Program-made: the position numbers and the translations under genes
The notes under the pieces: generated by a model
What the model was told of the DNA's origin: nothing
Databases searched by the model: none
Seen by the model: only the letters and a program-made list of their open reading frames with translations
Shown: positions 2,808 through 24,101 of the stretch, one piece after another
Layout of the letters: every line of letters begins with the position of its first letter
Position numbering within the stretch: the stretch's first letter is position 1
IMG/VR virus record: IMGVR_UViG_3300032212_000052
Coordinates: 1-40,702 of that record
DNA length: 40,702 nucleotides
Source: a virus
Lineage: Duplodnaviria > Caudoviricetes
Strand: one strand, 5' to 3'

Positions 2808-3080
2808 ATGTATCTATATCTACTAAAACAATTAGAAGAATGCGTTGAAACTAAAGAAGGTAATAACTGGAATATCACATTATGTTCAGATGGCAGTGGT
2901 GAATTGGTTCATCCAAACGGAGAAGCACTTCATGTGTTTAATAATGAAGAAGAGCTCATTATATATGTGAAATCAATCTGTAAATGCACAGAGGCTATAT
3001 TAACCTTTGGTAAGTGTATGGAATTAATACAGGAAGGGTGGGAAGAAATTAGTGATATTGATGTTGCCGAGTGTGGGTAA
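2808..3080 (+). CDS. Hypothetical protein, first gene of early operon; its stop codon lies in the first att site
   Basis: ORF with GAGAGGG SD; ends GGGTAA|C. Confidence 0.75.
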   Translation: MYLYLLKQLEECVETKEGNNWNITLCSDGSGELVHPNGEALHVFNNEEELIIYVKSICKCTEAILTFGKCMELIQEGWEEISDIDVAECG

Positions 3081-3135
3081 CGGAAAGATTAAAAAGCGCC
3101 GCTTTCCGGCGTCTTTTTTGAATGAATTGTTATAT
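3075..3135 (-). repeat. attC site A1
   Basis: Minus strand reads ATATAAC AATTC ATTCAAAA ..hairpin.. TTTTAAT CTTTCC GTTACCC, i.e. R''-5bp-L''(extra C)-L'-6bp-R'. TAACAATTCATTCAA is the aadA-type attC left arm. Confidence 0.88.
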
Positions 3136-3154
3136 TTTTATTTATAGGTGAGTT

Positions 3155-3349
3155 ATGAAGGCTAGTTTATTACTACAACAAAGCGCAGACCCGTTTGATA
3201 CGGCATGTATGCAAGTTAGAGAAATGGAAGAAGCACTGCAAGAGCTTGTAGATCTTAAAAACTATAAAGATGAACACGGCAAGGATGAATTTTATTTAGA
3301 GAATCAGCCTAAAGCATGGAAAAGAGCAAGAGCTGTTTTGGAAATATAA
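3155..3349 (+). CDS. Cassette A1 hypothetical protein
   Basis: AGGTG SD; stop in ATATAA|C. Confidence 0.8.
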   Translation: MKASLLLQQSADPFDTACMQVREMEEALQELVDLKNYKDEHGKDEFYLENQPKAWKRARAVLEI

Positions 3350-3401
3350 CGCAGAGTTAAACGGCGCGTTAAGCGTCCGATTTTTGAACGCCTTGTTATG
3401 T
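3344..3401 (-). repeat. attC site A2
   Basis: + strand ATATAAC GCAGA GTTAAAC GGCGC..GCGTCC GATTTTT-G-AAC GCCTT GTTATGT. Confidence 0.85.
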
Positions 3402-3419
3402 GCAGGGCTTGGAGGAAGC

Positions 3420-3626
3420 GTGAGAGATAAATTTACTATTGGTGACAAAGTTAGATTAACGGAAAACCCTTTTGATGAGCAAATACCAGAAGAGGCAATG
3501 AGATTTGCAGCCGTTAATAATAAAACACATGTGGTTACACGCACCAAAGACGTACCTAGTGGGCAATGGATAAAAACTGACTTAATTAACGAATGGATAA
3601 GCTTTGGATGGTTTGTTGCCACATAA
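3420..3626 (+). CDS. Cassette A2 hypothetical protein (small beta-barrel-like; GTG start)
   Basis: GGAGG SD at 3411-3415 favours GTG 3420 over the track start 3384; FTIGDKVRL motif; stop in ACATAA|C. Confidence 0.75.
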   Translation: MRDKFTIGDKVRLTENPFDEQIPEEAMRFAAVNNKTHVVTRTKDVPSGQWIKTDLINEWISFGWFVAT

Positions 3627-3679
3627 CGGCTTTAATAAAGCGTGAGCGTAGCGAGTCGCTTTTGATTTAATTGTTATAT
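3621..3679 (-). repeat. attC site A3
   Basis: + strand ACATAAC GGCTTT AATAAAGCG..CGCTTTT-G-ATT TAATT GTTATAT; 59 bp; extrahelical G and T. Confidence 0.87.
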
Positions 3680-3692
3680 TACGGGGTAACGG

Positions 3693-3911
3693 ATGAGCAT
3701 TATTACTATCGGTGAACATCAGCACTTAAAAAACGACTATGTGTGCAGCTTTTGCGGCGATGAAAACAAAAGAGTTGTTGGACGAGCATATAAACAAAAA
3801 CGGCATGACTACCCAAAAAAGCACTATATGTTTTCTTACTGTGCGGATTGTGCATTAAGGCAAGCAGAGGAGATGGTGAAAGTTGCCCACCCGAAGCACA
3901 AGGTAATATAA
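3693..3911 (+). CDS. Cassette A3 zinc-finger protein
   Basis: CSFCG...YCADC (ClpX-type C4 finger pattern); stop in ATATAA|C. Confidence 0.75.
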   Translation: MSIITIGEHQHLKNDYVCSFCGDENKRVVGRAYKQKRHDYPKKHYMFSYCADCALRQAEEMVKVAHPKHKVI

Positions 3912-3964
3912 CAGCCAAGCTAACCAGCAAGCGTAGCGAAGTCTATGTTAGCGACCTGTTATAA
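3906..3964 (-). repeat. Array-terminal attC-like site, copy 1
   Basis: ATAACAGCCAAGCTAACCAGCAAGCGTAGCGAAGTCTATGTTAGCGACCTGTTATAA followed by ATGAGG SD; near-identical to 9302-9360 and related to 7237-7292. Confidence 0.8.
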
Positions 3965-3978
3965 ATGAGGATTAAAAT

Positions 3979-4263
3979 ATGAGCTTATTGCTAGACGAGA
4001 ATTTAAAAATGACAACAAAAGAAAGTTTACTTGTAAAGCTAACAGAACGCAGAGTTTTAGATGTAAGAATGGGCGAAATTTTCGACCTGTTGCCCAAAGG
4101 TACTACGTTAGAACTAAAGACATTTAAAACATTATTCAGGCAAAAAGAGAAAATGGATATTGAAGCGTTTTATTCTGAATTAGGGGCTTTATTGTACATG
4201 ATGTTATTTAGAATAATGGAAGAAGAAGAACAAGTGAAGGTTAATAACTGGGAGGATGAGTAA
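3979..4263 (+). CDS. Hypothetical protein
   Basis: GAGG SD; translationally coupled to the next ORF. Confidence 0.7.
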   Translation: MSLLLDENLKMTTKESLLVKLTERRVLDVRMGEIFDLLPKGTTLELKTFKTLFRQKEKMDIEAFYSELGALLYMMLFRIMEEEEQVKVNNWEDE

Positions 4264-4577
4264 TGAACCATACAGAATTACCTTGGAAAATGGAAGAACA
4301 GAATATACATACTGGCTCAATCTGTACGTGTCACGGCGACAAAGACACATGGTTTGAGGTATGGACTCAAAATTGGTCAAATGGAATTGACGCAGAAGCA
4401 AACGCCGCCTTTATCGTTAAAGCATGTAATAACCATTACAAAATACTTGATTTGTTAGATGAAGCAAGACTACAAATAGAATATTTGCATAGCAAATTTA
4501 AAGAAACCGGCTCAGGAAATATTGTGCTGTATAGAATAGAAGAAGCAATAAAACAAGTGGAGGATGACAATGAATAA
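4263..4577 (+). CDS. Phage accessory protein (HTxxPW...EANAAFIVKACN family)
   Basis: Recurrent phage early-gene motif; GGAGG SD. Confidence 0.75.
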   Translation: MNHTELPWKMEEQNIHTGSICTCHGDKDTWFEVWTQNWSNGIDAEANAAFIVKACNNHYKILDLLDEARLQIEYLHSKFKETGSGNIVLYRIEEAIKQVEDDNE

Positions 4578-4887
4578 CCCACAAGAAATGATGCAAGCAT
4601 TAATAGACGGTGAAACCTTAGAATCGTTTAACTGTAAATTAGCTAAATTAGAAGATGGTAATTTTGTTTGTGATGAAGGTTATGAAGTGCCAAACTTTAA
4701 AAATCATACGAGCTGGGATGTTCGCAAAGAACCCGCGCATATACAGGGAAATTATGGGTTTATGTATGCTAAAAAAGCAAGATTATCAAATCTTATTTTT
4801 AACACAAGGGAGGAGCTGGAAAAATATTTTGAGTTAGAGATTAAAAATAACATAGGCAAGAGCGTAAAGCTTGGAGTAATAGAATGA
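4570..4887 (+). CDS. Hypothetical protein
   Basis: GGAGG SD at 4559-4563 fits ATG 4570; overlaps neighbouring genes. Confidence 0.7.
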   Translation: MNNPQEMMQALIDGETLESFNCKLAKLEDGNFVCDEGYEVPNFKNHTSWDVRKEPAHIQGNYGFMYAKKARLSNLIFNTREELEKYFELEIKNNIGKSVKLGVIE

Positions 4888-5174
4888 ATCTTATAGAAAG
4901 CTGGAAAGAACGAGCAAAGGAAAAATACGGCTCTATCGGTGAAGGTGTGCGTGAATTAAATATGATTTTAAATATGAAACTTACACCTAGCCAGATAAAC
5001 GAAATGAGCAAAGGGAAAAGGTCTGTTCCTGCCAGCGTACAAAATATGATGATTAACGATACCTTGTTGACATCAATGGCTGATGCTGGCTTAACAGATG
5101 CGATGCTAGTGTTAACAATGGATCAGTTTTCTGAATTAAGAGATAAATTGTCATTACCGGAGAGGAAAAAATGA
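4884..5174 (+). CDS. Putative HTH DNA-binding protein
   Basis: LTPSQINEMSKGKRSVP resembles an XRE/Cro recognition helix. Confidence 0.55.
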   Translation: MNLIESWKERAKEKYGSIGEGVRELNMILNMKLTPSQINEMSKGKRSVPASVQNMMINDTLLTSMADAGLTDAMLVLTMDQFSELRDKLSLPERKK

Positions 5175-5374
5175 AATATACAAAGGACTACTTATCAAGA
5201 GATGTGGCCGGAACGATGTTAATTGGGTATATGAGAAATGTTCTTAATATGATGAAACGAACGGACAATCCAACAGAAGCAGATTATAAGGCATATATTG
5301 GCGCGTTTGATTTTATGCTTAAATGTTATGATGAAACTATTGAAGAATTAGAGAAAATAGAAAGGAGAATATAA
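5171..5374 (+). CDS. Hypothetical protein
   Basis: GAGG SD; ATGA overlap. Confidence 0.7.
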   Translation: MKYTKDYLSRDVAGTMLIGYMRNVLNMMKRTDNPTEADYKAYIGAFDFMLKCYDETIEELEKIERRI

Positions 5375-5568
5375 TGGCTATTTATATTTGTGATGAGCGC
5401 GGAAACTATAAAGATGATGATTATTTTCCTTGCGTTGAACATCCGAAAGGCGGTGATTTTTGTTGCGAAGAATGTGCAGACGAGATTGAATACCAAATAG
5501 AGAAAGATGAACTTAAAAAGCTTGCATCAAAAAATCAAAGAGAAGTTGAGGCGGGGCTGAAAAAATGA
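5374..5568 (+). CDS. Small Cys-rich hypothetical protein
   Basis: AGGAG SD; CCEEC motif. Confidence 0.7.
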   Translation: MAIYICDERGNYKDDDYFPCVEHPKGGDFCCEECADEIEYQIEKDELKKLASKNQREVEAGLKK

Positions 5569-5741
5569 GCTTACATACACAGGAAGAAAATATAGCAATG
5601 GCTAAGATAATAATTAGAGAATTAATAGCCTTCGATAATAAATGTAATAATCAGGAGTTTCCAGATAAAGCGATTCAGTGTGAGGAGTTAAAGAAAATCA
5701 CGGCGCTGGCTCGTATTGTTGGGGCGGATTTGGGGGAATGA
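5565..5741 (+). CDS. 58-aa hypothetical protein (not in ORF track)
   Basis: ATGA overlaps on both sides and fills the operon gap. Confidence 0.6.
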   Translation: MSLHTQEENIAMAKIIIRELIAFDNKCNNQEFPDKAIQCEELKKITALARIVGADLGE

Positions 5742-6040
5742 GTTTCTTTAAAGATAACCCAGTAAGAAGCAAGAAATATCTTAAATGGATAGATGGGCTT
5801 GATTGTTGTTTATGTCACGCACCCGCAGACACGCATCACCATATTATTGGGATAGGTGACGGAATAATGGGTGGTAAGGCATGTGACCTGCTTTCTATGC
5901 CTGTTTGCACTGGCTGTCATGCACTTTTCCATCGGCAACACGAAAACCCAGAACTTAAACTTGAGCAATGGGAATACGTGGCGAAAACATTACAGAAGGC
6001 CATAAAGGACGGAATCATTAAGGGTATTAAAGTCGCTTAA
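5738..6040 (+). CDS. DUF968-like putative HNH/Zn nuclease
   Basis: RSKKYLKWI..CCLC..HHIIG..GGKACD..PVCTGCH pattern. Confidence 0.75.
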   Translation: MSFFKDNPVRSKKYLKWIDGLDCCLCHAPADTHHHIIGIGDGIMGGKACDLLSMPVCTGCHALFHRQHENPELKLEQWEYVAKTLQKAIKDGIIKGIKVA

Positions 6041-6248
6041 GCGTATCAGGGTTAAAGCCCTTATCAATCACATTTTGACGTTTAGAGGTTGGAACACCAC
6101 CATTTTTTAACCAGTTGTAAAGCGTGCATTTTTTATTCTTGTCGCCTAGCAACTTTTTAGCGGCAAATGAAATTGAGCCAAATTCGTCCAATAAGTTTTG
6201 GTGTAGCTCAGTTTGTTCTAATCGTTGTACTTGAGAACGCATATTCAT
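6027..6248 (-). CDS. Cro-like HTH regulator
   Basis: FGSISFAAKKL..TLYNWLKNGGVP pattern; divergent from the promoter at 6262. Confidence 0.65.
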   Translation of the reverse strand: MNMRSQVQRLEQTELHQNLLDEFGSISFAAKKLLGDKNKKCTLYNWLKNGGVPTSKRQNVIDKGFNPDTLKRL

Positions 6249-6261
6249 TTGAAAATAATCC

Positions 6262-6300
6262 TTGCATAGTTATACTATATGTGTATAATGTAACACATAG
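6262..6300 (+). promoter_or_regulatory. Rightward sigma70 promoter with overlapping palindromes (possible operators)
   Basis: TTGCAT, 16 bp, TATAAT (6284-6289); ATAGT-TAT-ACTAT and ATGTGT...ACACAT dyads. Confidence 0.6.
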
Positions 6301-6330
6301 AAAGTAAACATTCAATACGGAGATAGTTAG

Positions 6331-6462
6331 ATGATTCCAGAAGACGAGCTAAAAGAATTAATGGAAGAACGCGAAGAAAAAAGAATAGAAGATTTAGATT
6401 ATCAGGAAGAGTGTAAACAAGAGCGGTCTGATTGGGATATGAATGATAGTGATTATTTATAA
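6331..6462 (+). CDS. 43-aa acidic hypothetical protein (not in ORF track)
   Basis: GGAG SD; MIPEDELKELMEERE...; stop in TTATAA|C at the start of array B. Confidence 0.65.
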   Translation: MIPEDELKELMEEREEKRIEDLDYQEECKQERSDWDMNDSDYL

Positions 6463-6497
6463 CGGCGATTAAAGTTAATTAACTAGGGATAAAGAAA

Positions 6498-6785
6498 ATG
6501 TCCAAAGAAACCAAAGGACAAGGAGCAAACGCCGCGTTAGGCGGTCAAAAAGAGCGACTTTTTATACGTCCGATTAATTGTGATCAGGTTGCATGGATTC
6601 TGGATATTGCTGAAAGATACTTACCAAATAAGATAAATGTAGGAGTTTCCCAGCAAAGGGAGATGCAAAAATATGCAATGTTGTACGAAATAATGGAAGT
6701 AGCAAACCTTAAATTTGAGAATGATGAAGCAAGATGGAATGGTACGCCTAACCAAGCAAGGCTTTATGTCCGCGAGGACGTATAA
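6498..6785 (+). CDS. Cassette B1 hypothetical protein; N-terminus read through an attC remnant
   Basis: GAGCGACTT-TTTATACGTCC at 6552-6571 matches the reverse complement of the gene end GGACGTATAAC at 10 of 11 positions. Confidence 0.75.
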   Translation: MSKETKGQGANAALGGQKERLFIRPINCDQVAWILDIAERYLPNKINVGVSQQREMQKYAMLYEIMEVANLKFENDEARWNGTPNQARLYVREDV

Positions 6786-6855
6786 CGGCACTATTAACAG
6801 GCGCGCGGTAGCGCGTCCAAGCGAGGAACGAGCGATGTTGAATGATTTGTTATGG
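6780..6855 (-). repeat. attC site B1
   Basis: + strand GTATAAC GGCACT ATTAACA ..two hairpins.. TGTT-G-AAT GATTT GTTATGG. Confidence 0.87.
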
Positions 6856-7242
6856 CGTGATGCTTCCACATCTCCAGAAGATGGAACGGAGTTTCAAGGC
6901 TGGATAATTGCTGAGGATGGCGCTGGATTCTGGGAGCCGCGCTGCAAACTTGACGAAGACGGAACGCTTGGAATATACGGGCGTGTTGATTATGACAAAG
7001 ATGGCTGGGACTTTGGGCTATGGCATTTAAGAATTACACACTGGATGCCTCAACCAAGTGAGCCAGACATGATAGACATGATGAGCGAAGACGCATTGCG
7101 CTATGAACTGCGGGGCGTGATCACAGAAGTTGATAGTCTTAGAAAGGCTTTTGAACACACGCATGTTAATAATGGTGAAGATGACGCTTGCGCTGAGTGT
7201 GGGCTGGATATTAGAAACCCTGTACACAGGCGAGTCTTATAA
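6835..7242 (+). CDS. Cassette B2 DUF551-like protein with C-terminal Zn-binding extension
   Basis: GAGGA SD and ATG 6835 lie inside the attC; ITHWMPQPSEP is the DUF551 signature; CAECG..H tail. Confidence 0.7.
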   Translation: MLNDLLWRDASTSPEDGTEFQGWIIAEDGAGFWEPRCKLDEDGTLGIYGRVDYDKDGWDFGLWHLRITHWMPQPSEPDMIDMMSEDALRYELRGVITEVDSLRKAFEHTHVNNGEDDACAECGLDIRNPVHRRVL

Positions 7243-7292
7243 CAGCCAAGCTAACCAGCCGCGCAGCGGTCTGAATTATCGACCTGTTATAT
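7237..7292 (-). repeat. Array-terminal attC-like site, copy 2
   Basis: ATAACAGCCAAGCTAACCAGC...GTCTGAATTATCGACCTGTTATA shares both arms with 3906-3964. Confidence 0.75.
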
Positions 7293-7312
7293 AATAAATA
7301 GAGAGGGTAAAA

Positions 7313-8476
7313 ATGAATAATCAAGAATTAGTTATAGCAACACAAAATATTGATAAATCAGTTACTGATGCAGCCGCACAGTTTGTATCTACTATTTCAC
7401 AGTACAAGTGGGAGTTAGTACCTGACTCACAATTAGCGGCCGCTAAACAGACCCTAATGAAAAATGACTATATTATGGGTATTGCGTCTAGCAGCCCAGA
7501 ATCAGTACAAGAAGCTTTAGTTCAGGCCGCTATTCTTGGCCTTGATTTAACAGAAGGAAAGCGGCAGGGCTGGTTGTTACCGCGTAAAAACCAATTTAAA
7601 AAGACGGTTATCCAATTACAAGTAGGTTATAAAGGTGTAGAGGCCATTCATCAAAGAATGGGTGTTATTGACCGCTTAGTTATTCGTACAGTGCGCGAAA
7701 ATGACGAGTTTGAATGGTCTGGAGACGATCAAGAAAAGCCAATGCATAAAGCAGATTGGTTCGCTAGCAATGAAAGTCGAGGAGCAATATCAGGTGGTTA
7801 TGCAATTACCTATTATCCTGATAAATCCATAAATGTGGTTGTTGCACCTATCACCACTATTTTTGAAAAGCACCGTGACCGATCAGAGTCTTACAAGTCA
7901 TATAAGGCTAAAGTGGATAAGGGTGAGTGGGCTTATGAACCACCTTGGGTATCTGATGAGCAATCAATGGTCGAGAAAACAATGGCCTATATCGCAGCTA
8001 AACAATGGCCTGCTAATATTCGTAATGAGGACAGAGCATCAAAAATACTTGAAACCTTGCACGAAACAGACGTAGCAGATTATACATACGGTTACACTCA
8101 GGAACAGAAAGAATATTTTTATAAATTTATAGACGAAAACGATCCATTAGGCATGTATTTGTTTAGCAAACATGTATTAACAGAAGTTTATATTGCTTTG
8201 TATCAGGGGCTAATTGCGTCCATTCCAAGAGGCGGCAAAGGTAAGCGGAGAGAAGAACACGAAAAATTTATGCAGCAGGGAGATGATATATTTCATAATA
8301 TTATAACCGCAATTTCTTCTCATGACGTAGGTTTATTGACTGAGAGCGTAGAAGGTATATTAGTCATAACTGAAAAATTATTGCTTAAAAAGTTAGACGA
8401 AAAAGACCAAGATGAATACAAATCAATGATGAAAGATTCTGAAGCAATAGAAACAGGCTTAGATGAAAAAGTGTAA
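7313..8476 (+). CDS. recT: RecT/Redbeta-family ssDNA annealing protein with long C-terminal extension
   Basis: AAILGLDL..GWLLPR..QLQVGYKG..VRENDEF..PW...MVEKT motifs. Confidence 0.88.
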   Translation: MNNQELVIATQNIDKSVTDAAAQFVSTISQYKWELVPDSQLAAAKQTLMKNDYIMGIASSSPESVQEALVQAAILGLDLTEGKRQGWLLPRKNQFKKTVIQLQVGYKGVEAIHQRMGVIDRLVIRTVRENDEFEWSGDDQEKPMHKADWFASNESRGAISGGYAITYYPDKSINVVVAPITTIFEKHRDRSESYKSYKAKVDKGEWAYEPPWVSDEQSMVEKTMAYIAAKQWPANIRNEDRASKILETLHETDVADYTYGYTQEQKEYFYKFIDENDPLGMYLFSKHVLTEVYIALYQGLIASIPRGGKGKRREEHEKFMQQGDDIFHNIITAISSHDVGLLTESVEGILVITEKLLLKKLDEKDQDEYKSMMKDSEAIETGLDEKV

Positions 8477-8678
8477 GGATACAGAGTCAGTCAAAGGCTG
8501 CGGAGATATTAAACCTGATACCGAATTTAGGATTATTCGCACCAATAAAACAACAGGAAAAGCATATAGAGAAAGGTTATGCAATGAGTGCAGAAAAAAG
8601 AGCCGGAGAACAAAAAAGAAAGGTATTCCAGTAGATGAAGCGAATCTTTATAATAAGTTTAATCAGCTTATGGGATAA
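8463..8678 (+). CDS. Zinc-finger hypothetical protein
   Basis: KKC..GCG..K...EF...LCNECRK. Confidence 0.65.
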   Translation: MKKCKDTESVKGCGDIKPDTEFRIIRTNKTTGKAYRERLCNECRKKSRRTKKKGIPVDEANLYNKFNQLMG

Positions 8679-8696
8679 AATTATAGGAGCAAAACA

Positions 8697-8795
8697 ATGA
8701 ACCAACACGAAGAAATAGCCAATAAGTCATTAAAGCAAGGCTTTATAGCTGGGTTTATATGCTGCGCCCTATTAGTGTGGATTTTTATTTTATAA
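8697..8795 (+). CDS. 32-aa membrane peptide (not in ORF track)
   Basis: AGGAG SD; MNQHEEIANKSLKQGFIAGFICCALLVWIFIL; stop in TTATAA|C. Confidence 0.6.
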   Translation: MNQHEEIANKSLKQGFIAGFICCALLVWIFIL

Positions 8796-8822
8796 CGCAA
8801 CTATTGAAGAGAATTGTTATGC
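8790..8822 (-). repeat. Internally deleted attC site C1 (33 bp)
   Basis: TTATAAC GCAACT ATTGAAGA GAATT GTTATGC: both R boxes and spacers kept, central stem lost. Confidence 0.7.
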
Positions 8823-9022
8823 AGTTACAAGATATTGAAGACGCATGGAACAAACAAGCAGATGAATACAACCAATGGTTCGATCTTGGTTCAGATGAAA
8901 AAGTGGAATTCACTATTAAGTATGTTCGTGAGGTAAGCGCGGAAATCTGTCGCGAAACTGGAAAGTACAGCGATTGCATTGATATGGCGCTAAGGTGTGC
9001 CGATGCTATTGTTGATGCATAA
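8819..9022 (+). CDS. Cassette C1 hypothetical protein
   Basis: Probable ATG lies within GTTATGC; ends TGCATAA|C, complementary to GTTATGCA. Confidence 0.7.
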   Translation: MQLQDIEDAWNKQADEYNQWFDLGSDEKVEFTIKYVREVSAEICRETGKYSDCIDMALRCADAIVDA

Positions 9023-9088
9023 CGGCGCTGCTCAGTTGTTGCGACTGAGCGCAGCGAAAGAGCAATCAACTGGGACAACTTGTTATAA
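9017..9088 (-). repeat. attC site C2
   Basis: + strand GCATAAC GGCGCT GCTCAGTTG...CAACTG-G-GAC AACTT GTTATAA. Confidence 0.8.
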
Positions 9089-9103
9089 ACAAACGGAGAT
9101 ATT

Positions 9104-9307
9104 ATGCAAAACGAATTAATGAAGTACGACCCCGCATATGGTTATGAACGACCTTACCCATCACATGCTGAACAATGGCGAAGGTATCACGGCAAGACCG
9201 CATGGATTTTTAACCCGTGGACTGGCGCAAGACGAAACCCTAGTGCTATAGGTAGCGATACTTTTGGTAATGCGATTGTTGATAGTAAGCCGAGTACGGG
9301 GCTATAA
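9104..9307 (+). CDS. Cassette C2 hypothetical phage protein
   Basis: GGAG SD; Trp/Pro-rich YPSHAEQWR..AWIFNPWTG; stop in CTATAA|C. Confidence 0.8.
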   Translation: MQNELMKYDPAYGYERPYPSHAEQWRRYHGKTAWIFNPWTGARRNPSAIGSDTFGNAIVDSKPSTGL

Positions 9308-9360
9308 CAGTCAAGCTAAACAGCAAGCGTAGCGAAGTCTGTTTTAGCGACCTATTATAA
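9302..9360 (-). repeat. Array-terminal attC-like site, copy 3
   Basis: ATAACAGTCAAGCTAAACAGCAAGCGTAGCGAAGTCTGTTTTAGCGACCTATTATAAATGAGG; GTT changed to ATT at 9354. Confidence 0.8.
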
Positions 9361-9372
9361 ATGAGGTGAATT

Positions 9373-9672
9373 ATGACAACTAAAGAAACAAACGACGAAA
9401 TATACGAAAGGTTTGATTTTAAAATCGCGCTGTCTGAGAAGATAGATTTTAATATTGAGCTCGTTGGTAAGTATGCAAAAGCTGCAAAAGAAGCAGAAGA
9501 CGAACAAACAAGAAAAGAATGCAAGCGTATGGCAAGGAGAGGACGCAAGATTCTATCGACACAAAGAACAGAAAGACTAAAGCTATCATCTAGGGAGATA
9601 GCCAAGCAGCTAGGCTTAGATTTTTACAGGGTGAAATATTTATACCGTGAATATGTGGGCGGCGGACTTTAA
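9373..9672 (+). CDS. Putative HTH protein
   Basis: C-terminal LSSREIAKQLGL; GAGGTG SD. Confidence 0.65.
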   Translation: MTTKETNDEIYERFDFKIALSEKIDFNIELVGKYAKAAKEAEDEQTRKECKRMARRGRKILSTQRTERLKLSSREIAKQLGLDFYRVKYLYREYVGGGL

Positions 9673-10746: not shown

Positions 10747-11075
10747 GCAACTTCATAACAGATAGCGAAATAGAAAAGGCGCTAAATTATCTTAGGGATA
10801 CATCAGAGAATTACGCCAAATGGAAGGGGCGCATGAAATACCTTGAGAGCCACAGAAAGAGCGTAAGAAGCTCGGAGGTTTTAAGGGCAACAGGTAAGAC
10901 AATAAGTGAGAATGTCCACAGAGGCGAAGCGTCCGAGGCTTACAAGGATATTTTAAAGGAGTATGAAGAAGCGGTTTACGAATACACGCTATTGGACGCA
11001 ATGAGAGCAGCAGCAGAGGCCAAGATTGAAGCATGGCGAACTCTGAGCGCAAGCTATAGAAAAGGAAATGTATAA
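10743..11075 (+). CDS. Helical protein, UvsY-like recombination mediator family (tentative)
   Basis: All-helical with AEAKIEAWRT C-terminus, typical of phage UvsY-like proteins. Confidence 0.5.
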   Translation: MSNFITDSEIEKALNYLRDTSENYAKWKGRMKYLESHRKSVRSSEVLRATGKTISENVHRGEASEAYKDILKEYEEAVYEYTLLDAMRAAAEAKIEAWRTLSASYRKGNV

Positions 11076-14740: not shown

Positions 14741-15337
14741 GTGTGCTACTATATACACATGACTAGAACATGCCCTATATGCAATAAAGAACATTCAAGT
14801 CGATCTGGTATGAAGAAGTCTGATGGGTCTTTCTATCTAAACAGAAAATGTTATCAATGTGCTAGGACTCATAAAGGAAAAAGAACAAAGAAAGAACGGT
14901 TCTTTGAGTATGTCGAAAAAAAATCTTTTGGGTGTTGGGAATGGTCTGGAGGTTTAGATAAAGCGGGGTATGGAAGGTTTGGGCTTGAGAATGCCAAAGG
15001 CATTGGCGCTCACAGATATTCTTATGCGCTCCATTATGGCTCATTCAAAAAATCACTATTTGTACTGCATGAGTGCGATAACCCAAAATGCGTTAATCCA
15101 GACCATTTATTTTTAGGGACACATCAGGATAATATGGCTGACATGGTTAAAAAAGGCCGACAGAGGGCTTTAAGCGGCGAAGATAGCCCCGCCTGTAAGA
15201 TCACAGAGGGTATAGCTATAAACATACTTAATAGTCAGCTATCCTATAATGAGACAGCGAAAAAATACGGGGTGTCTAAATCAACCGTTGCCGCCATAAA
15301 ACAGAGAAGAACTTGGAAGCATTTAACGGAGACTTAA
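14741..15337 (+). CDS. HNH homing endonuclease (probable start 14759)
   Basis: GCWEW..GYG..AHRYSY..VLHECDNPKCVNPDHLFLGTHQDN plus C-terminal HTH. Confidence 0.9.
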   Translation: MCYYIHMTRTCPICNKEHSSRSGMKKSDGSFYLNRKCYQCARTHKGKRTKKERFFEYVEKKSFGCWEWSGGLDKAGYGRFGLENAKGIGAHRYSYALHYGSFKKSLFVLHECDNPKCVNPDHLFLGTHQDNMADMVKKGRQRALSGEDSPACKITEGIAINILNSQLSYNETAKKYGVSKSTVAAIKQRRTWKHLTET

Positions 15338-17251: not shown

Positions 17252-17496
17252 TGGATAATGCGCACGAAAAAAGATACCGCGAAGAAGAAGCAAAGAAGAA
17301 TAACGCGCACGAAAAAGAGTATCTCAGAAAAGAGATTTCTATCGTTCGTGACGGAAAGGAGGGGGAGCCGAGCATTAAACAATTAGAAGGCATGGTAAAA
17401 GATACGAATTTAAGTGGCACTTCTCGCTCTGTGATTGAAAATGCCATAAAAGTAAGAAAGGCTAAATTACTTGAATTAGAGTCAAGATTAAAATGA
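17251..17496 (+). CDS. Hypothetical protein
   Basis: GGAG SD before ATG 17251; internal duplication NAHEK x2. Confidence 0.65.
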   Translation: MDNAHEKRYREEEAKKNNAHEKEYLRKEISIVRDGKEGEPSIKQLEGMVKDTNLSGTSRSVIENAIKVRKAKLLELESRLK

Positions 17497-17999
17497 AAAT
17501 AGTCAACCTTAAGCAAAAACAACTCAAAGAGATACTGTGTTATGATCCGTTGACGGGTATATTCACTAGACTCAAGACAACGCAGGGAGCTTGCGCTGGA
17601 GATGTTGCGGGACACAAAAACAGTCTTGGGTATATAGAAATCTCAATTTCTAATGAAAAGTATCTTGCTCACCGTCTCGCTTGGCTTTATATGACTGGGA
17701 AATGGCCGAAACACCAGATTGACCATGCCGACCATATTCGCAGCAATAATAAGTGGTTTAATTTAGAAGAGGCCACACATCAAGAGAACGGCAAAAATGT
17801 GTCGCTAAGGTCTGACAATAAAAGTGGAGTTGTTGGCGTTTATTGGAGCAAAGCAAGAGAGAAATGGGTTAGCAATATAGCTGTTGACGGAAAAACCGTA
17901 TATCTTGGGATTTCAGAAAAAAAAGAGGATGCGATAAAGCTAAGGGAGCGGGCCAACATTAAGCATGGGTTCCATGAGAATCATGGTAGAGCGCTATGA
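17493..17999 (+). CDS. HNH-AP2 homing endonuclease
   Basis: YDPLTG..YLAHRLAW..IDH...NN..NL; SGVVGV..W..I..YLG AP2 domain. Confidence 0.9.
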   Translation: MKIVNLKQKQLKEILCYDPLTGIFTRLKTTQGACAGDVAGHKNSLGYIEISISNEKYLAHRLAWLYMTGKWPKHQIDHADHIRSNNKWFNLEEATHQENGKNVSLRSDNKSGVVGVYWSKAREKWVSNIAVDGKTVYLGISEKKEDAIKLRERANIKHGFHENHGRAL

Positions 18000-20176: not shown

Positions 20177-22135
20177 ATGGCCGTAAAAAAAAGACGTATT
20201 AGTAAAAGAGATTGGGAAAAAGTTGCTTCCTTTATTTCTGGCACGCTAAAAAAACGCAAAGACGGTAAGTACCGTAAGCAAGCGGAAAAAATGTGGGCGG
20301 AGACCGATAGACAGGTTGCAATGGAGTCTATGACTCGTACCGCTAATAATCCTGACGAGCAAAACTGGCGTTCAGCCTTAGAACTAGGTGAACTCTCAAG
20401 GGCTTCTGAGGTATTGTCTGCTGAAATACGCCGCATGGCCTTCCCTCAAAACCGCTCATGGTTTGATCCACATACAGAATTAGATCCAGAAGAAAACGGC
20501 GCGGTAAACGATAAAAAACAACAATTCGTTGATGGTGGGTTAAGGTCGTTAATGGCGCAACAACACCTTGACTTTGGCTTCAAGGCGCGACAAGACCTCT
20601 CTATTAAAGAGGCTCTTCATCACGGCGGCTATGTGGTTGAGGTTGAAGAAATAACCATGTTAGGCGCAAGGCCTGACGGAAAGATTAAAAGTATCTCTGC
20701 CCCTGTTTGGGTTCCTCATTCTATGTGGAATTGTTACCCAGATGACGCACCTTCTGCGACAGCCGGTGCATTATTTTATACGGGCAGCATGATTATTTGC
20801 TCTTATATGTCTCATCAGGCTTTATTGGGTGTAAGTGGCGAAGGATGGATAAAAGAAAATATTAATGATATAGAAGACCCAAAATCAAAAGACCACGAAT
20901 TAACGGCTTACTATGGCGATATTACCATTCAACGGAAGGGTGGGGATAATATTTACCTCCCTAATGTAAAAGCGATAGCGATTAAAGATAAACTTATCTA
21001 CTATAAACCAAACGACCTACCTTATTCACGCATTATTTATAATGGTTATGAACGATTAGACGTAAGAAACCCTTATTTTATCTCACCTTTGATGAAAATG
21101 AGTCCAACACAGAAAATCGCCTCTGTATTAGCAAATGATTTAATTGATATAACAGAAAGGCTTGCAGACCCCTCTATTATTTATGATGGAAACGATCCTG
21201 ATTTTGTGATGAATGGCGGTCCTAGCACTGTACCGGGCAGTAAAACACCCTCTAAGAACATGGCAAACTTTAAAGAGGTCGCGCCGGGCGACCCAACGGC
21301 TGTACTTACAGCCTTACAGTTTAATATTGCCGAGTTACAAAAAGGCACATCTGTTGATGCTATTCGCTCAGGTATGACATCATCGACTGAGCAAACGGCC
21401 ACAGAAGTCGAAAGGACACGACAAGGCGGTCAAATTAGAACAATAGACTTCTTGGATAAACATGAACTACAAGGTTTACGCCCTTTTCTTTACCTTCAAC
21501 ACGAGTCGAACAAAAAGAATTTAAAATCATACCAGTTTTACAACCCTGAAACGAACTCCCCTGACTTTGTAAGAGTAAAAAATGAAGATTTACAGCTCAA
21601 CGTACAGTTTGATGTTGTTGGTTCTAAAGGTTTGGTTGAGGAAGAACAACGCCAAGCAAGAACCATGAATGTAACTCGCTTCGCTTTTGAAACAGGAAAA
21701 GGTGACAAGATTGATTTTGACGCTATTATTAAAGAAATGTATCAAGATGCAGGGAATAAAAACCCAGAGCGATTCTTAGTTATTGGTGATGAGCAATCAA
21801 TGGGGGCAAAACTTGAGGAACTGACTACACAATTCCAACAGCTTCAAGAGCAAGCACAGCAAATGCAAGAGGAAAATCAAAGCCTAAAACAAAATGAAGA
21901 TTCCAAGATACAGGAAATTCAAGCTAAGGGCGCGATTGAAATGGCTCGCCAAGACAATGAAGAAGAAAAAATTAAAACCAAAGCAGCCTATGATATGGAA
22001 AATCTACAAAAAGAATACGAGCTAAAAGAAAGAGAGATGGATGATAAACGAGAACTTGAGATATTAAGATTAGAAACACTCAAAGAGATAGAAATGTTTA
22101 AAGAGAATCGATCTAAAGAAGAGAGTGAAGAATGA
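20177..22135 (+). CDS. Portal protein
   Basis: 652 aa immediately after terL; TATEV motif; coiled-coil C-terminal barrel. Confidence 0.85.
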   Translation: MAVKKRRISKRDWEKVASFISGTLKKRKDGKYRKQAEKMWAETDRQVAMESMTRTANNPDEQNWRSALELGELSRASEVLSAEIRRMAFPQNRSWFDPHTELDPEENGAVNDKKQQFVDGGLRSLMAQQHLDFGFKARQDLSIKEALHHGGYVVEVEEITMLGARPDGKIKSISAPVWVPHSMWNCYPDDAPSATAGALFYTGSMIICSYMSHQALLGVSGEGWIKENINDIEDPKSKDHELTAYYGDITIQRKGGDNIYLPNVKAIAIKDKLIYYKPNDLPYSRIIYNGYERLDVRNPYFISPLMKMSPTQKIASVLANDLIDITERLADPSIIYDGNDPDFVMNGGPSTVPGSKTPSKNMANFKEVAPGDPTAVLTALQFNIAELQKGTSVDAIRSGMTSSTEQTATEVERTRQGGQIRTIDFLDKHELQGLRPFLYLQHESNKKNLKSYQFYNPETNSPDFVRVKNEDLQLNVQFDVVGSKGLVEEEQRQARTMNVTRFAFETGKGDKIDFDAIIKEMYQDAGNKNPERFLVIGDEQSMGAKLEELTTQFQQLQEQAQQMQEENQSLKQNEDSKIQEIQAKGAIEMARQDNEEEKIKTKAAYDMENLQKEYELKEREMDDKRELEILRLETLKEIEMFKENRSKEESEE

Positions 22136-23030: not shown

Positions 23031-24101
23031 ATGGCTACCGTAATTACAAATCTTATCTCCAACGTAACATCCCCCGTCAACTACATGTTGATGGAAGGCT
23101 TGTTAAAAACTGCTCGCGCAAATATGCCATATTTTAATGGCTCTTTAGCGGGCGAATTAACCGAAAACAACGGCGCATACTCTGTACGTTATGAGCGTAT
23201 TGAGAATTTAGCCGCTGCCACTACAGCTCTCGCTGAACCAACAGGCAACACAACTTGGGGTAACGGTCGAGACTCTGTTAATCCAACGGTAACTCGTGTT
23301 GATGTTGCTATGGCTAAATACGGTAATGCAATTACCTTAACGGAAGAAGTAGACTTGATCCAGGTTAATGTACGCGCAATGCGTTTCATGGATACATTAG
23401 GTGAAAACGCAGGTCGTTCATTAAACATGCTTCAACAAACAGCTATCCGCACAGGCGCAACCAATAAGCGTTACGCTAACGGTGTTGCAAGTGATGCTGT
23501 TTGTATCACTTCAATTGCTACTGCTGACATTAAGAAAGTTGTTAATGAGTTGAATCGTAATGATGCCATCATCTTTGATCCAATGAGTGATGGCTCTACT
23601 ATGATTGGCAGTTCACCGATTCGCGCAAGCTACTTTGGTACTTGTCATCCTGATGTAGAAGAAGACATACGTTCCCTTACAGGCTTTATTGCTGTAGAGG
23701 CTTACGCAAGCCATACTGCTACGTACCCCGGTGAATTTGGTGCTTTAGGTGGCGTTCGTTGGTGTCGCAGCTCTATCGCGGCGGTAACAAGTGCGGCAGG
23801 TACGACTTCTGTTGTTGGTTTCCGAGGCGCAGGCACAACCACTAATGATGTATACTCTTGCTTGATTTATGGTAAAGAAGCAATGGGTTCTGTTGGCTTA
23901 GGTGAAAACCACGCTAAGGAAATATATCAAGGCGGTGAACGAATCCCTGCGGTACAGTTAATCTCTCACAAGCCCGGTTCTTCTGGTGTTGGTGATATGT
24001 TTAACGAAGTAGGTTCGCTTGCTTGGAAAGCCTTTCATGGCGGTAGCGTACTAAACGCAAACTGGATTTATGAGTTGCGTGTGTTAGCGGCTGATATTTA
24101 G
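23031..24101 (+). CDS. Major capsid protein, N4-gp56 family
   Basis: KYGN.I.LT, CHPDVEEDIR, GEFGALGGVRW motifs; AGGAGG SD; followed by a terminator. Confidence 0.9.
   Translation: MATVITNLISNVTSPVNYMLMEGLLKTARANMPYFNGSLAGELTENNGAYSVRYERIENLAAATTALAEPTGNTTWGNGRDSVNPTVTRVDVAMAKYGNAITLTEEVDLIQVNVRAMRFMDTLGENAGRSLNMLQQTAIRTGATNKRYANGVASDAVCITSIATADIKKVVNELNRNDAIIFDPMSDGSTMIGSSPIRASYFGTCHPDVEEDIRSLTGFIAVEAYASHTATYPGEFGALGGVRWCRSSIAAVTSAAGTTSVVGFRGAGTTTNDVYSCLIYGKEAMGSVGLGENHAKEIYQGGERIPAVQLISHKPGSSGVGDMFNEVGSLAWKAFHGGSVLNANWIYELRVLAADI

Follow-up and report, generated by a model that had tools for sequence, protein, structure and literature searches.

A putative mirror-image cassette array of integron-type attC sites, lacking an integrase, in a complete phage genome

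What separates the small plus-strand genes between positions 3075 and 9360 of a Caudoviricetes genome: the ends of mobile gene cassettes, or ordinary hairpins such as terminators? The DNA in question is IMG/VR record IMGVR_UViG_3300032212_000052 (Duplodnaviria; Caudoviricetes), positions 1 to 40,702, which form the stretch analysed here and are hereafter called the window. It is a complete circular phage record with a 127-nt terminal repeat, classed with direct terminal repeats, and encodes terminase, portal, major head, tail fibre, endolysin, RecT, a RusA-like protein and a replication initiator. A sequence-only reading of positions 3081 to 9022 had noticed that the GTT box in front of a gene is the reverse complement of that gene's own 3' end, and had taken this as the footprint of circular cassettes.

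By their sequence the ten sites found here, S1 to S10, are putative integron-type attC sites, and the array that they form in a run of small plus-strand genes is a predicted phage cluster of attC sites without integron-integrases (CALIN). Ten sites on one strand with a largest gap of about 2.5 kb and no intI gene agree with the definition of a CALIN (at least two attC sites on one strand, within 4 kb, no intI), and not with that of a complete integron, as this record, classed complete, has 0 intI gene matches. The array is probably a mirror-image cassette array, into which a host integron integrase (IntI), acting in trans, would insert cassettes at the sites or at TAA-C stops. The C of TAAC, next to which each crossover is placed, lies at 3081, 3350, 3627, 3912, 6463, 6786, 7243, 8796, 9023 and 9308, and the ten sites bound nine inter-site segments. 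Predicted sites and units, with the open reading frames (ORFs) and the scores of a covariance model described below, are as follows.

2808..3080, plus strand: likely landing gene, 90 aa; its TAA stop is the first crossover
3075..3135, minus strand: S1, attC with an extra C in L'', aadA7-like; covariance model 49 bits, E 1.4e-9
3081..3349, plus strand: unit 1, S1 interior and 64-aa ORF 3155-3349; ends complementary over 9 nt
3344..3401, minus strand: S2, attC with an extra C in L''; covariance model 51.6 bits
3350..3626, plus strand: unit 2, S2 interior and an ORF to 3626; ends complementary over 8 nt
3621..3679, minus strand: S3, attC; covariance model 32.6 bits
3627..3911, plus strand: unit 3, S3 interior and 72-aa ORF 3693-3911; ends complementary over 10 nt
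3906..3964, minus strand: S4, attC type without an extra L'' base
3912..6462, plus strand: multi-gene block from S4 to S5, 2.55 kb; ends match over 9 nt
6457..6567, minus strand: S5, long and decayed (core G to T); missed by the covariance model
6463..6785, plus strand: unit 5, 95-aa ORF 6498-6785; ends match at 10 of 11 nt
6780..6855, minus strand: S6, attC with an extra C; covariance model 43.8 bits
6786..7242, plus strand: unit 6, ORF 6835-7242, a predicted fusion; GAGCCA at 7063-7068 would be the surviving end of the first cassette
7237..7292, minus strand: S7, S4-type, partly decayed, precedes RecT; covariance model E 0.25
7243..8795, plus strand: RecT block, 1.55 kb, RecT (7313-8476) and two small ORFs; ends match at 12 of 13 nt
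8790..8822, minus strand: S8, central hairpin deleted, 33 nt
8796..9022, plus strand: unit 8, ORF from ATG 8819 to 9022; ends complementary over 8 nt
9017..9088, minus strand: S9, attC-like, pairs only in part; covariance model E 0.49
9023..9307, plus strand: unit 9, 67-aa ORF 9104-9307; ends match over 6 nt only
9302..9360, minus strand: S10, S4-type, last in the array, core broken (G to A); covariance model 24 bits

Read on the minus strand, the sites follow the order TAAC, 5-nt spacer, L'' with an extra C at position 4, hairpin, L', spacer of 5-6 nt, and GTTA. The inverted R boxes keep their conserved AAC/GTT core in eight of the ten sites (changed in S5 and S10), and S1, S2, S3 and S6 show paired L boxes, an extrahelical base and 5-6 nt spacers on that strand. 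Over the first 15 nt from TAAC the minus strand of S1 is identical to the top strand of the aadA7 attC in the supplement of Qi et al. (PMC9892861), which fixes the polarity independently of the covariance model. A canonical attC pattern gave three matches, all on the minus strand, and none in 100 shuffles. The covariance model, trained here on 17 bacterial sites that had been selected because their genes lie in canonical orientation, matched nine of the ten sites, all on the minus strand; six of them (S2, S1, S6, S3, S4 and S10) had E values of 3e-10 to 2e-3 and thus below 0.01, the matches to S7, S8 and S9 were weak (E 0.25-0.49), and a single stray match elsewhere had an E value of 0.88. Structure is conserved over sequence: 93% of the pair cells are paired in eight aligned sites (S5 and S8 left out), and in the L boxes four pairs have changed on both sides, a covariation score reached in 0 of 500 shuffles, with slid controls at 25-59%. 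A covariance model made from the window's own sites contained no base pairs and was not used, and further TAAC..GTTA hairpins elsewhere in the window were unsupported by the bacterial model.

The genes lie on the plus strand and the attC sites are canonical on the minus strand, i.e., the layout is inverted. IntI is reported to cut 5'-AAC-3' of the folded bottom strand (PMC5027507), and since the bottom strand of these sites is the plus strand of the window, the crossover is predicted at AA/C; the unit boundaries drawn by the sequence-only reading coincide with this cut. At all ten sites the crossover falls in the in-frame TAA stop of the upstream ORF (15 of the 60 plus-strand genes end in TAAC, ten of these at sites), and a crossover in the stop of the upstream gene assigns each site to the gene that follows it. 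Within S5 lie a predicted ribosome-binding site and the opening 21 codons of the gene that follows, beginning with ATG 6498; within S6 lie GAGGA and ATG 6835. Both ATGs sit behind purine-rich motifs, in different phases from each other, and are in frame with the downstream gene only; S5 and S6 are therefore predicted to supply the start codon of their own downstream gene. In unit 2 the ORF has GTG 3420 behind GGAGGA, and the reading frame is open through S2. Typical bacterial cassettes have an ORF on the top strand of attC that ends before R''; here the ORFs are on the opposite strand, and the seven single-gene units contain no canonical-strand ORF of at least 40 codons with a motif resembling a ribosome-binding site.

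The opposite polarity was weighed as well, in which the sites lie forward on the plus strand, belong to the preceding gene and recombine at G/TT before the next one. The pairing across genes described below is identical under either polarity, and the S4-type sites lack the strand-selecting base, a loss that is reported to favour top-strand recombination (PMC5027507). This polarity is nevertheless very improbable, as every match of model and pattern is on the minus strand, the start codons in S5 and S6 serve only the following gene, and copies of sites share the leader that follows them. It is also opposed by the first end, GGGTAAC of the gene at 2808-3080, which finds no pairing partner among the ten sites. 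A bare target, which the minus strand would show as GTT, should have no such partner, and the gene is likely the original landing place. IntI has been reported to insert cassettes outside integrons at GWT triplets, termed attG (Loot et al., bioRxiv 10.1101/2022.09.11.507474). The first junction, 3080/3081, resembles attG in reading GTT on the minus strand and in having no partner box; it differs in that attG was shown in E. coli with random targets, whereas the present target is a stop codon in a phage, reached by a reconstructed route.

The pairing of the boxes across each gene could be confirmed in detail. The five box pairs listed by the sequence-only reading lie where it placed them and have the lengths that it gave (9, 8, 10, 10 of 11, and 8 nt). 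As these were five picked from nine inter-site segments, the present test took all nine. Beyond GTTA the matches are, in order, 5, 4, 6, 5, 7, 1, 2, 4 and 2 nt, which makes 36 nt across genes (mean 4.0, nine segments) against 13 nt within sites (mean 1.3, ten sites). The permutation proposed earlier gave a mean of 18 nt for shuffled pairings (exact p = 20/362,880), and three other pairing scores over the nine segments gave p values of 4e-5 to 3e-3. For each of the five units originally chosen, the cognate end is the best match among the 48 TAAC ends at 2-12 kb. The worst segment, 6849-7243 with 1 nt, owes its score to the gene fusion discussed below. When units 1 to 3 were circularized in silico, the probability of a paired AAC/GTT core rose from 0.27, 0.58 and 0.10 to 0.98, 0.98 and 0.97, and seven of nine rebuilt circles folded better than the integrated hybrids. 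Complementary R boxes on the circle and a hybrid site in the array are what is asked of a cassette, and both are found here.

The same test bears on the view that the hairpins are terminators or repetitive extragenic palindromic (REP)-like repeats, with end matches that arose by chance in AT-rich DNA. The hairpins of S1, S2 and S3 do pass a terminator scan, and the end match of the block from S4 to S5 is equally good for S10. On the other hand, the permutation keeps composition and gives p of about 5e-5, the R and L boxes, spacers and extra base fit attC, an Rfam scan placed no family on the sites (its single weak match, at 21293, is away from them), and terminator-like matches number 12 against 7.2 +/- 2.7 in shuffles. 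We regard a pure terminator or REP origin as having a very slight chance, in line with the earlier rejection of it; the sites may have a side role as weak terminators. Both the 2.55-kb block (3912-6462) and the RecT block (7243-8795) may be whole excisable modules, or their end matches may be due to chance. A 3' end of the S10 unit at 11075/11076, in a gene ending TAAC, was a loose match only and is not claimed.

Unit 6 is predicted to be a fusion of two genes that has lost a site. Its protein in the window continues past PSEP, where the homologue P0002 (87%) stops, and the DNA at that point reads GAGCCA, the complement of the unit's GTTATGGC start. In a related locus (L286, 64%) the gene is unfused, starts with GTTATGGC, ends with GCCATAAC and has other neighbours; with these predicted ends the fusion prediction held. 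The L286 gene sits behind its own long minus-strand site, which supplies its start codon.

To see how common the inverted layout is, the same attC pattern was searched for in 15 of the 64 parts of the viral contig collection and in 2 of 64 parts of the bacterial and archaeal genomes, with a sample of 128 loci of about 520 viral stretches and 149 loci of about 5,200 bacterial ones. Of 122 viral and 192 bacterial sites, 68 and 172 were kept once duplicates had been removed, along with sites that folded weakly, lay close to the end of a locus or fell within a long ORF. Orientation was called for this one attC type by a crude ORF-length rule with self-chosen thresholds: the 68 viral sites were 29 inverse, 14 canonical, 7 both and 18 neither, and the 172 bacterial sites 17 inverse, 110 canonical, 20 both and 25 neither. 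By record, 26 of 57 viral ones were inverse and 9 canonical, whereas of 97 bacterial ones 10 were inverse and 61 canonical (26:9 vs 10:61, Fisher p 1.3e-9 for the decided records). The 52 viral inter-site segments were 17 inverse, 9 canonical and 26 ambiguous; none of the 66 bacterial segments was inverse. In this sample, then, the mirror layout is common among phage contigs and rare among bacterial genomes. Pairing follows the same rule in both: canonical bacterial arrays have means of 5.07 nt across genes and 1.84 nt within sites (55 segments), and the inverted viral segments 3.12 and 1.35 nt (n=17). The pairing footprint is therefore normal for any cassette array, bacterial ones showing it as strongly, and it shows past passage through a circle, not current mobility.

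In the mechanism that would account for these features, each attC precedes the gene to which it belongs, and the crossover is predicted in that gene's TAA stop. During infection a host IntI, acting in trans, would cut the folded plus strand at AA/C, and a circle would then be inserted into an existing site or a bare TAA-C stop, whose GTT on the other strand fits the GWT consensus of attG. Insertion at a TAA-C stop would leave every gene of a gene-dense phage operon intact, and a cassette would have to be backwards to end up there in the direction of transcription, supplying a ribosome-binding site or start codon of its own. Decay of the older units would have come later; three broken sites (S5, S8 and S10) and one fusion point to partial decay of the array.

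Several results weigh against such an array. S4, S7 and S10 lack the extrahelical base, and the broken sites make up three of the ten. The pattern behind the training set of the covariance model was written after the minus strand of the window had been viewed, which makes the matches to S1, S2 and S6 partly circular. Taken alone, the four segments not chosen earlier gave p values of 0.04 to 0.54 over four scores and are not clearly significant. Homologous genes that lack the cognate upstream site had been named beforehand as a finding that would speak against cassettes, and the outcome was divided: of six loci one (L286) keeps a site and five do not, the siteless ones being ordinary genes or domains (L282-L284 at 45-66%, L287-L288 at 49-50%). 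The interior of the L286 site differs from that of S6, so that gene and interior are not fixed partners. No tyrosine recombinase was found in the complete phage record (0 matches each to PF00589 and TIGR02249), and the integron-integrase model matched 0 of 34 viral records with such sites, only 5 of which are at least 90% complete. Orientation stayed undecided by the ORF-based call in 22 of 57 viral and 26 of 97 bacterial records. Neither a circle junction nor an empty site occurred in the assembled contigs of the one public run (X1) that holds this phage DNA and may be its source, contigs being a form in which rare variants are dropped. Other contigs of X1 carry S1-like and S9-like sites (the S9 copies close) with other neighbours. 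A joint 3132-9014 in this run proved to be another contig with two similar sites, and not an excision.

Several of these points would suit a different history, in which the units, once IntI cassettes, reached this phage lineage either together in one block or through RecT-type homologous or illegitimate recombination, with no integrase at work in the phage and with the sites reduced to shared boundaries and leaders for translation. The genome has no integrase, RecT and a RusA-like gene are inside or beside the array, S5 is used as coding sequence besides being broken like S8 and S10, and S4 and S10 are 92% identical across 64 nt, the leader TATAAATGAGG included (S10 has a compensatory L-box change relative to S4). 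Off-target and illegitimate recombination are also raised by Qi et al. as a route of entry into phages (PMC9892861). We consider this history unlikely, since a block from a bacterial integron would be canonical, the cargo homologues are phage genes, every junction lies exactly at the IntI cut triplet in a stop codon, and S1-S3 and S6 have kept the extrahelical base. Recombination at AA/C as the mode of arrival, the central proposal of the sequence-only reading, is supported by the pairing, the site identity and the junctions at the IntI cut, and remains the reading that we prefer.

Qi, Rajabal, Ghaly, Tetu and Gillings (2023) reported 17 CALINs in 10,705 phage genomes, integrase-less clusters of attC sites that, like the present one, sometimes have several ORFs between sites (PMC9892861). 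In their assays IntI1 recombined five of six phage attC sites, including both sites of phage PH101, one of them S4-type; PH101_attC2 recombined despite having no extra base (PMC9892861). The PH101 sites resemble the S3 and S4 types. Bottom-strand genes, crossover stops and pairing across genes are not described in the text of that article, whose figures and Dryad annotation may show inverted genes. A search of the literature, mostly outside subscription journals, found no description of the mirror layout in phages. What is new here, set against the text of PMC9892861, is the mirror-image layout, phage attC clusters themselves being already published. With bacterial arrays (PMC5027507, PMC5371416, PMC4889954) the window shares the R''/L''/L'/R' boxes, the 5-6 nt spacers, the extrahelical base, the AAC bottom-strand cut, the hybrid sites and the complementary circle ends as these sources describe them. 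It differs in having its genes on the bottom strand and, ahead of each gene, a site that may hold the gene's start; it has no intI, and the cargo consists of small phage genes with no PADLOC hit.

Among known phage sites, site 1 of phage TJE1 is canonical, sharing a strand with its genes. PH101 has three pattern sites on the plus strand, with all 17 annotated genes of the stretch on the minus strand; in one unit there is also, on the canonical strand, an 82-aa ORF absent from the annotation, which makes PH101 not a pure mirror case. Around unrelated middles, two PH101 units (L281, 3460-4100 and 4870-5500) share a near-identical site, the leader as far as the ATG and a tail of about 90 nt; one of them has two convergent ORFs, one unannotated.

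A bolder proposal, which we put forward tentatively and consider rather doubtful, is that phages maintain a mirror-cassette pool of their own with integrases borrowed from bacteria, and that they themselves create new cassettes: an attC with its leader would be copied before the start codon of a gene, a downstream TAA-C stop would become the second crossover, and the RecT block would be excisable. The recurrence of a site with its downstream leader before different genes (S4 and S10; S7 before RecT and a similar site before NinB) hints at cassette creation at start codons. Candidate copies of attC plus leader are S4/S10, S7 before RecT, the site before NinB in one other viral locus (L280) and the two PH101 chassis around unrelated ORFs. 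The exact S4-type motif had 0 matches in viral contigs, and a looser one had a single match, L280. At L280 1100-1552 an S7-like site and leader precede the NinB gene. This gene continues through its junction, TAT AAC, in an asparagine frame; the end match is 7 nt long, and no site follows.

The genesis of cassettes is, to our knowledge, a still unexplained step in integrons, and cassette creation at start codons, if true, would be a visible route for it. Bottom-strand selectivity is understood as orienting genes behind the integron promoter; mirror cassettes would be silent in a bacterial integron and expressed behind a phage stop codon. The integron integrase is a host enzyme known for storing anti-phage genes. 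Should the proposal hold, phages would possess a largely separate cassette pool and shuffle their own early genes with this host enzyme.

As to the cargo, Pfam and PADLOC assigned no function to the cassette proteins (PADLOC 0 of 13). The ORF of unit 9 is a member of a phage gene family that has no sites elsewhere. When 3050-4000 and 6400-9400 were compared by blastn with 50,697 phage records, no match was obtained, and no related loci were found for RecT or for ORF 8819-9022.

Elsewhere in the window, a gene for Thg1 (tRNA-His guanylyltransferase) lies at 67-747 on the minus strand (PHROG E 2e-80). Four genes for HNH-type endonucleases are located at 1036-1566, 5738-6040, 14741-15337 and 17493-17999, and a methyltransferase (16634) and a glycosyltransferase (17996) lie ahead of the terminase. 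The genes that lie before S1 and S5 are each preceded by a sigma-70-like promoter match (2744-2771 and 6249-6278), and both cassette runs may begin one gene behind a promoter; promoter-like matches are no more frequent in the window than in shuffles. The 9-mer GGGTAACGG of the first junction (3075) recurs in the leader of unit 3 (3684) and again at 23258.

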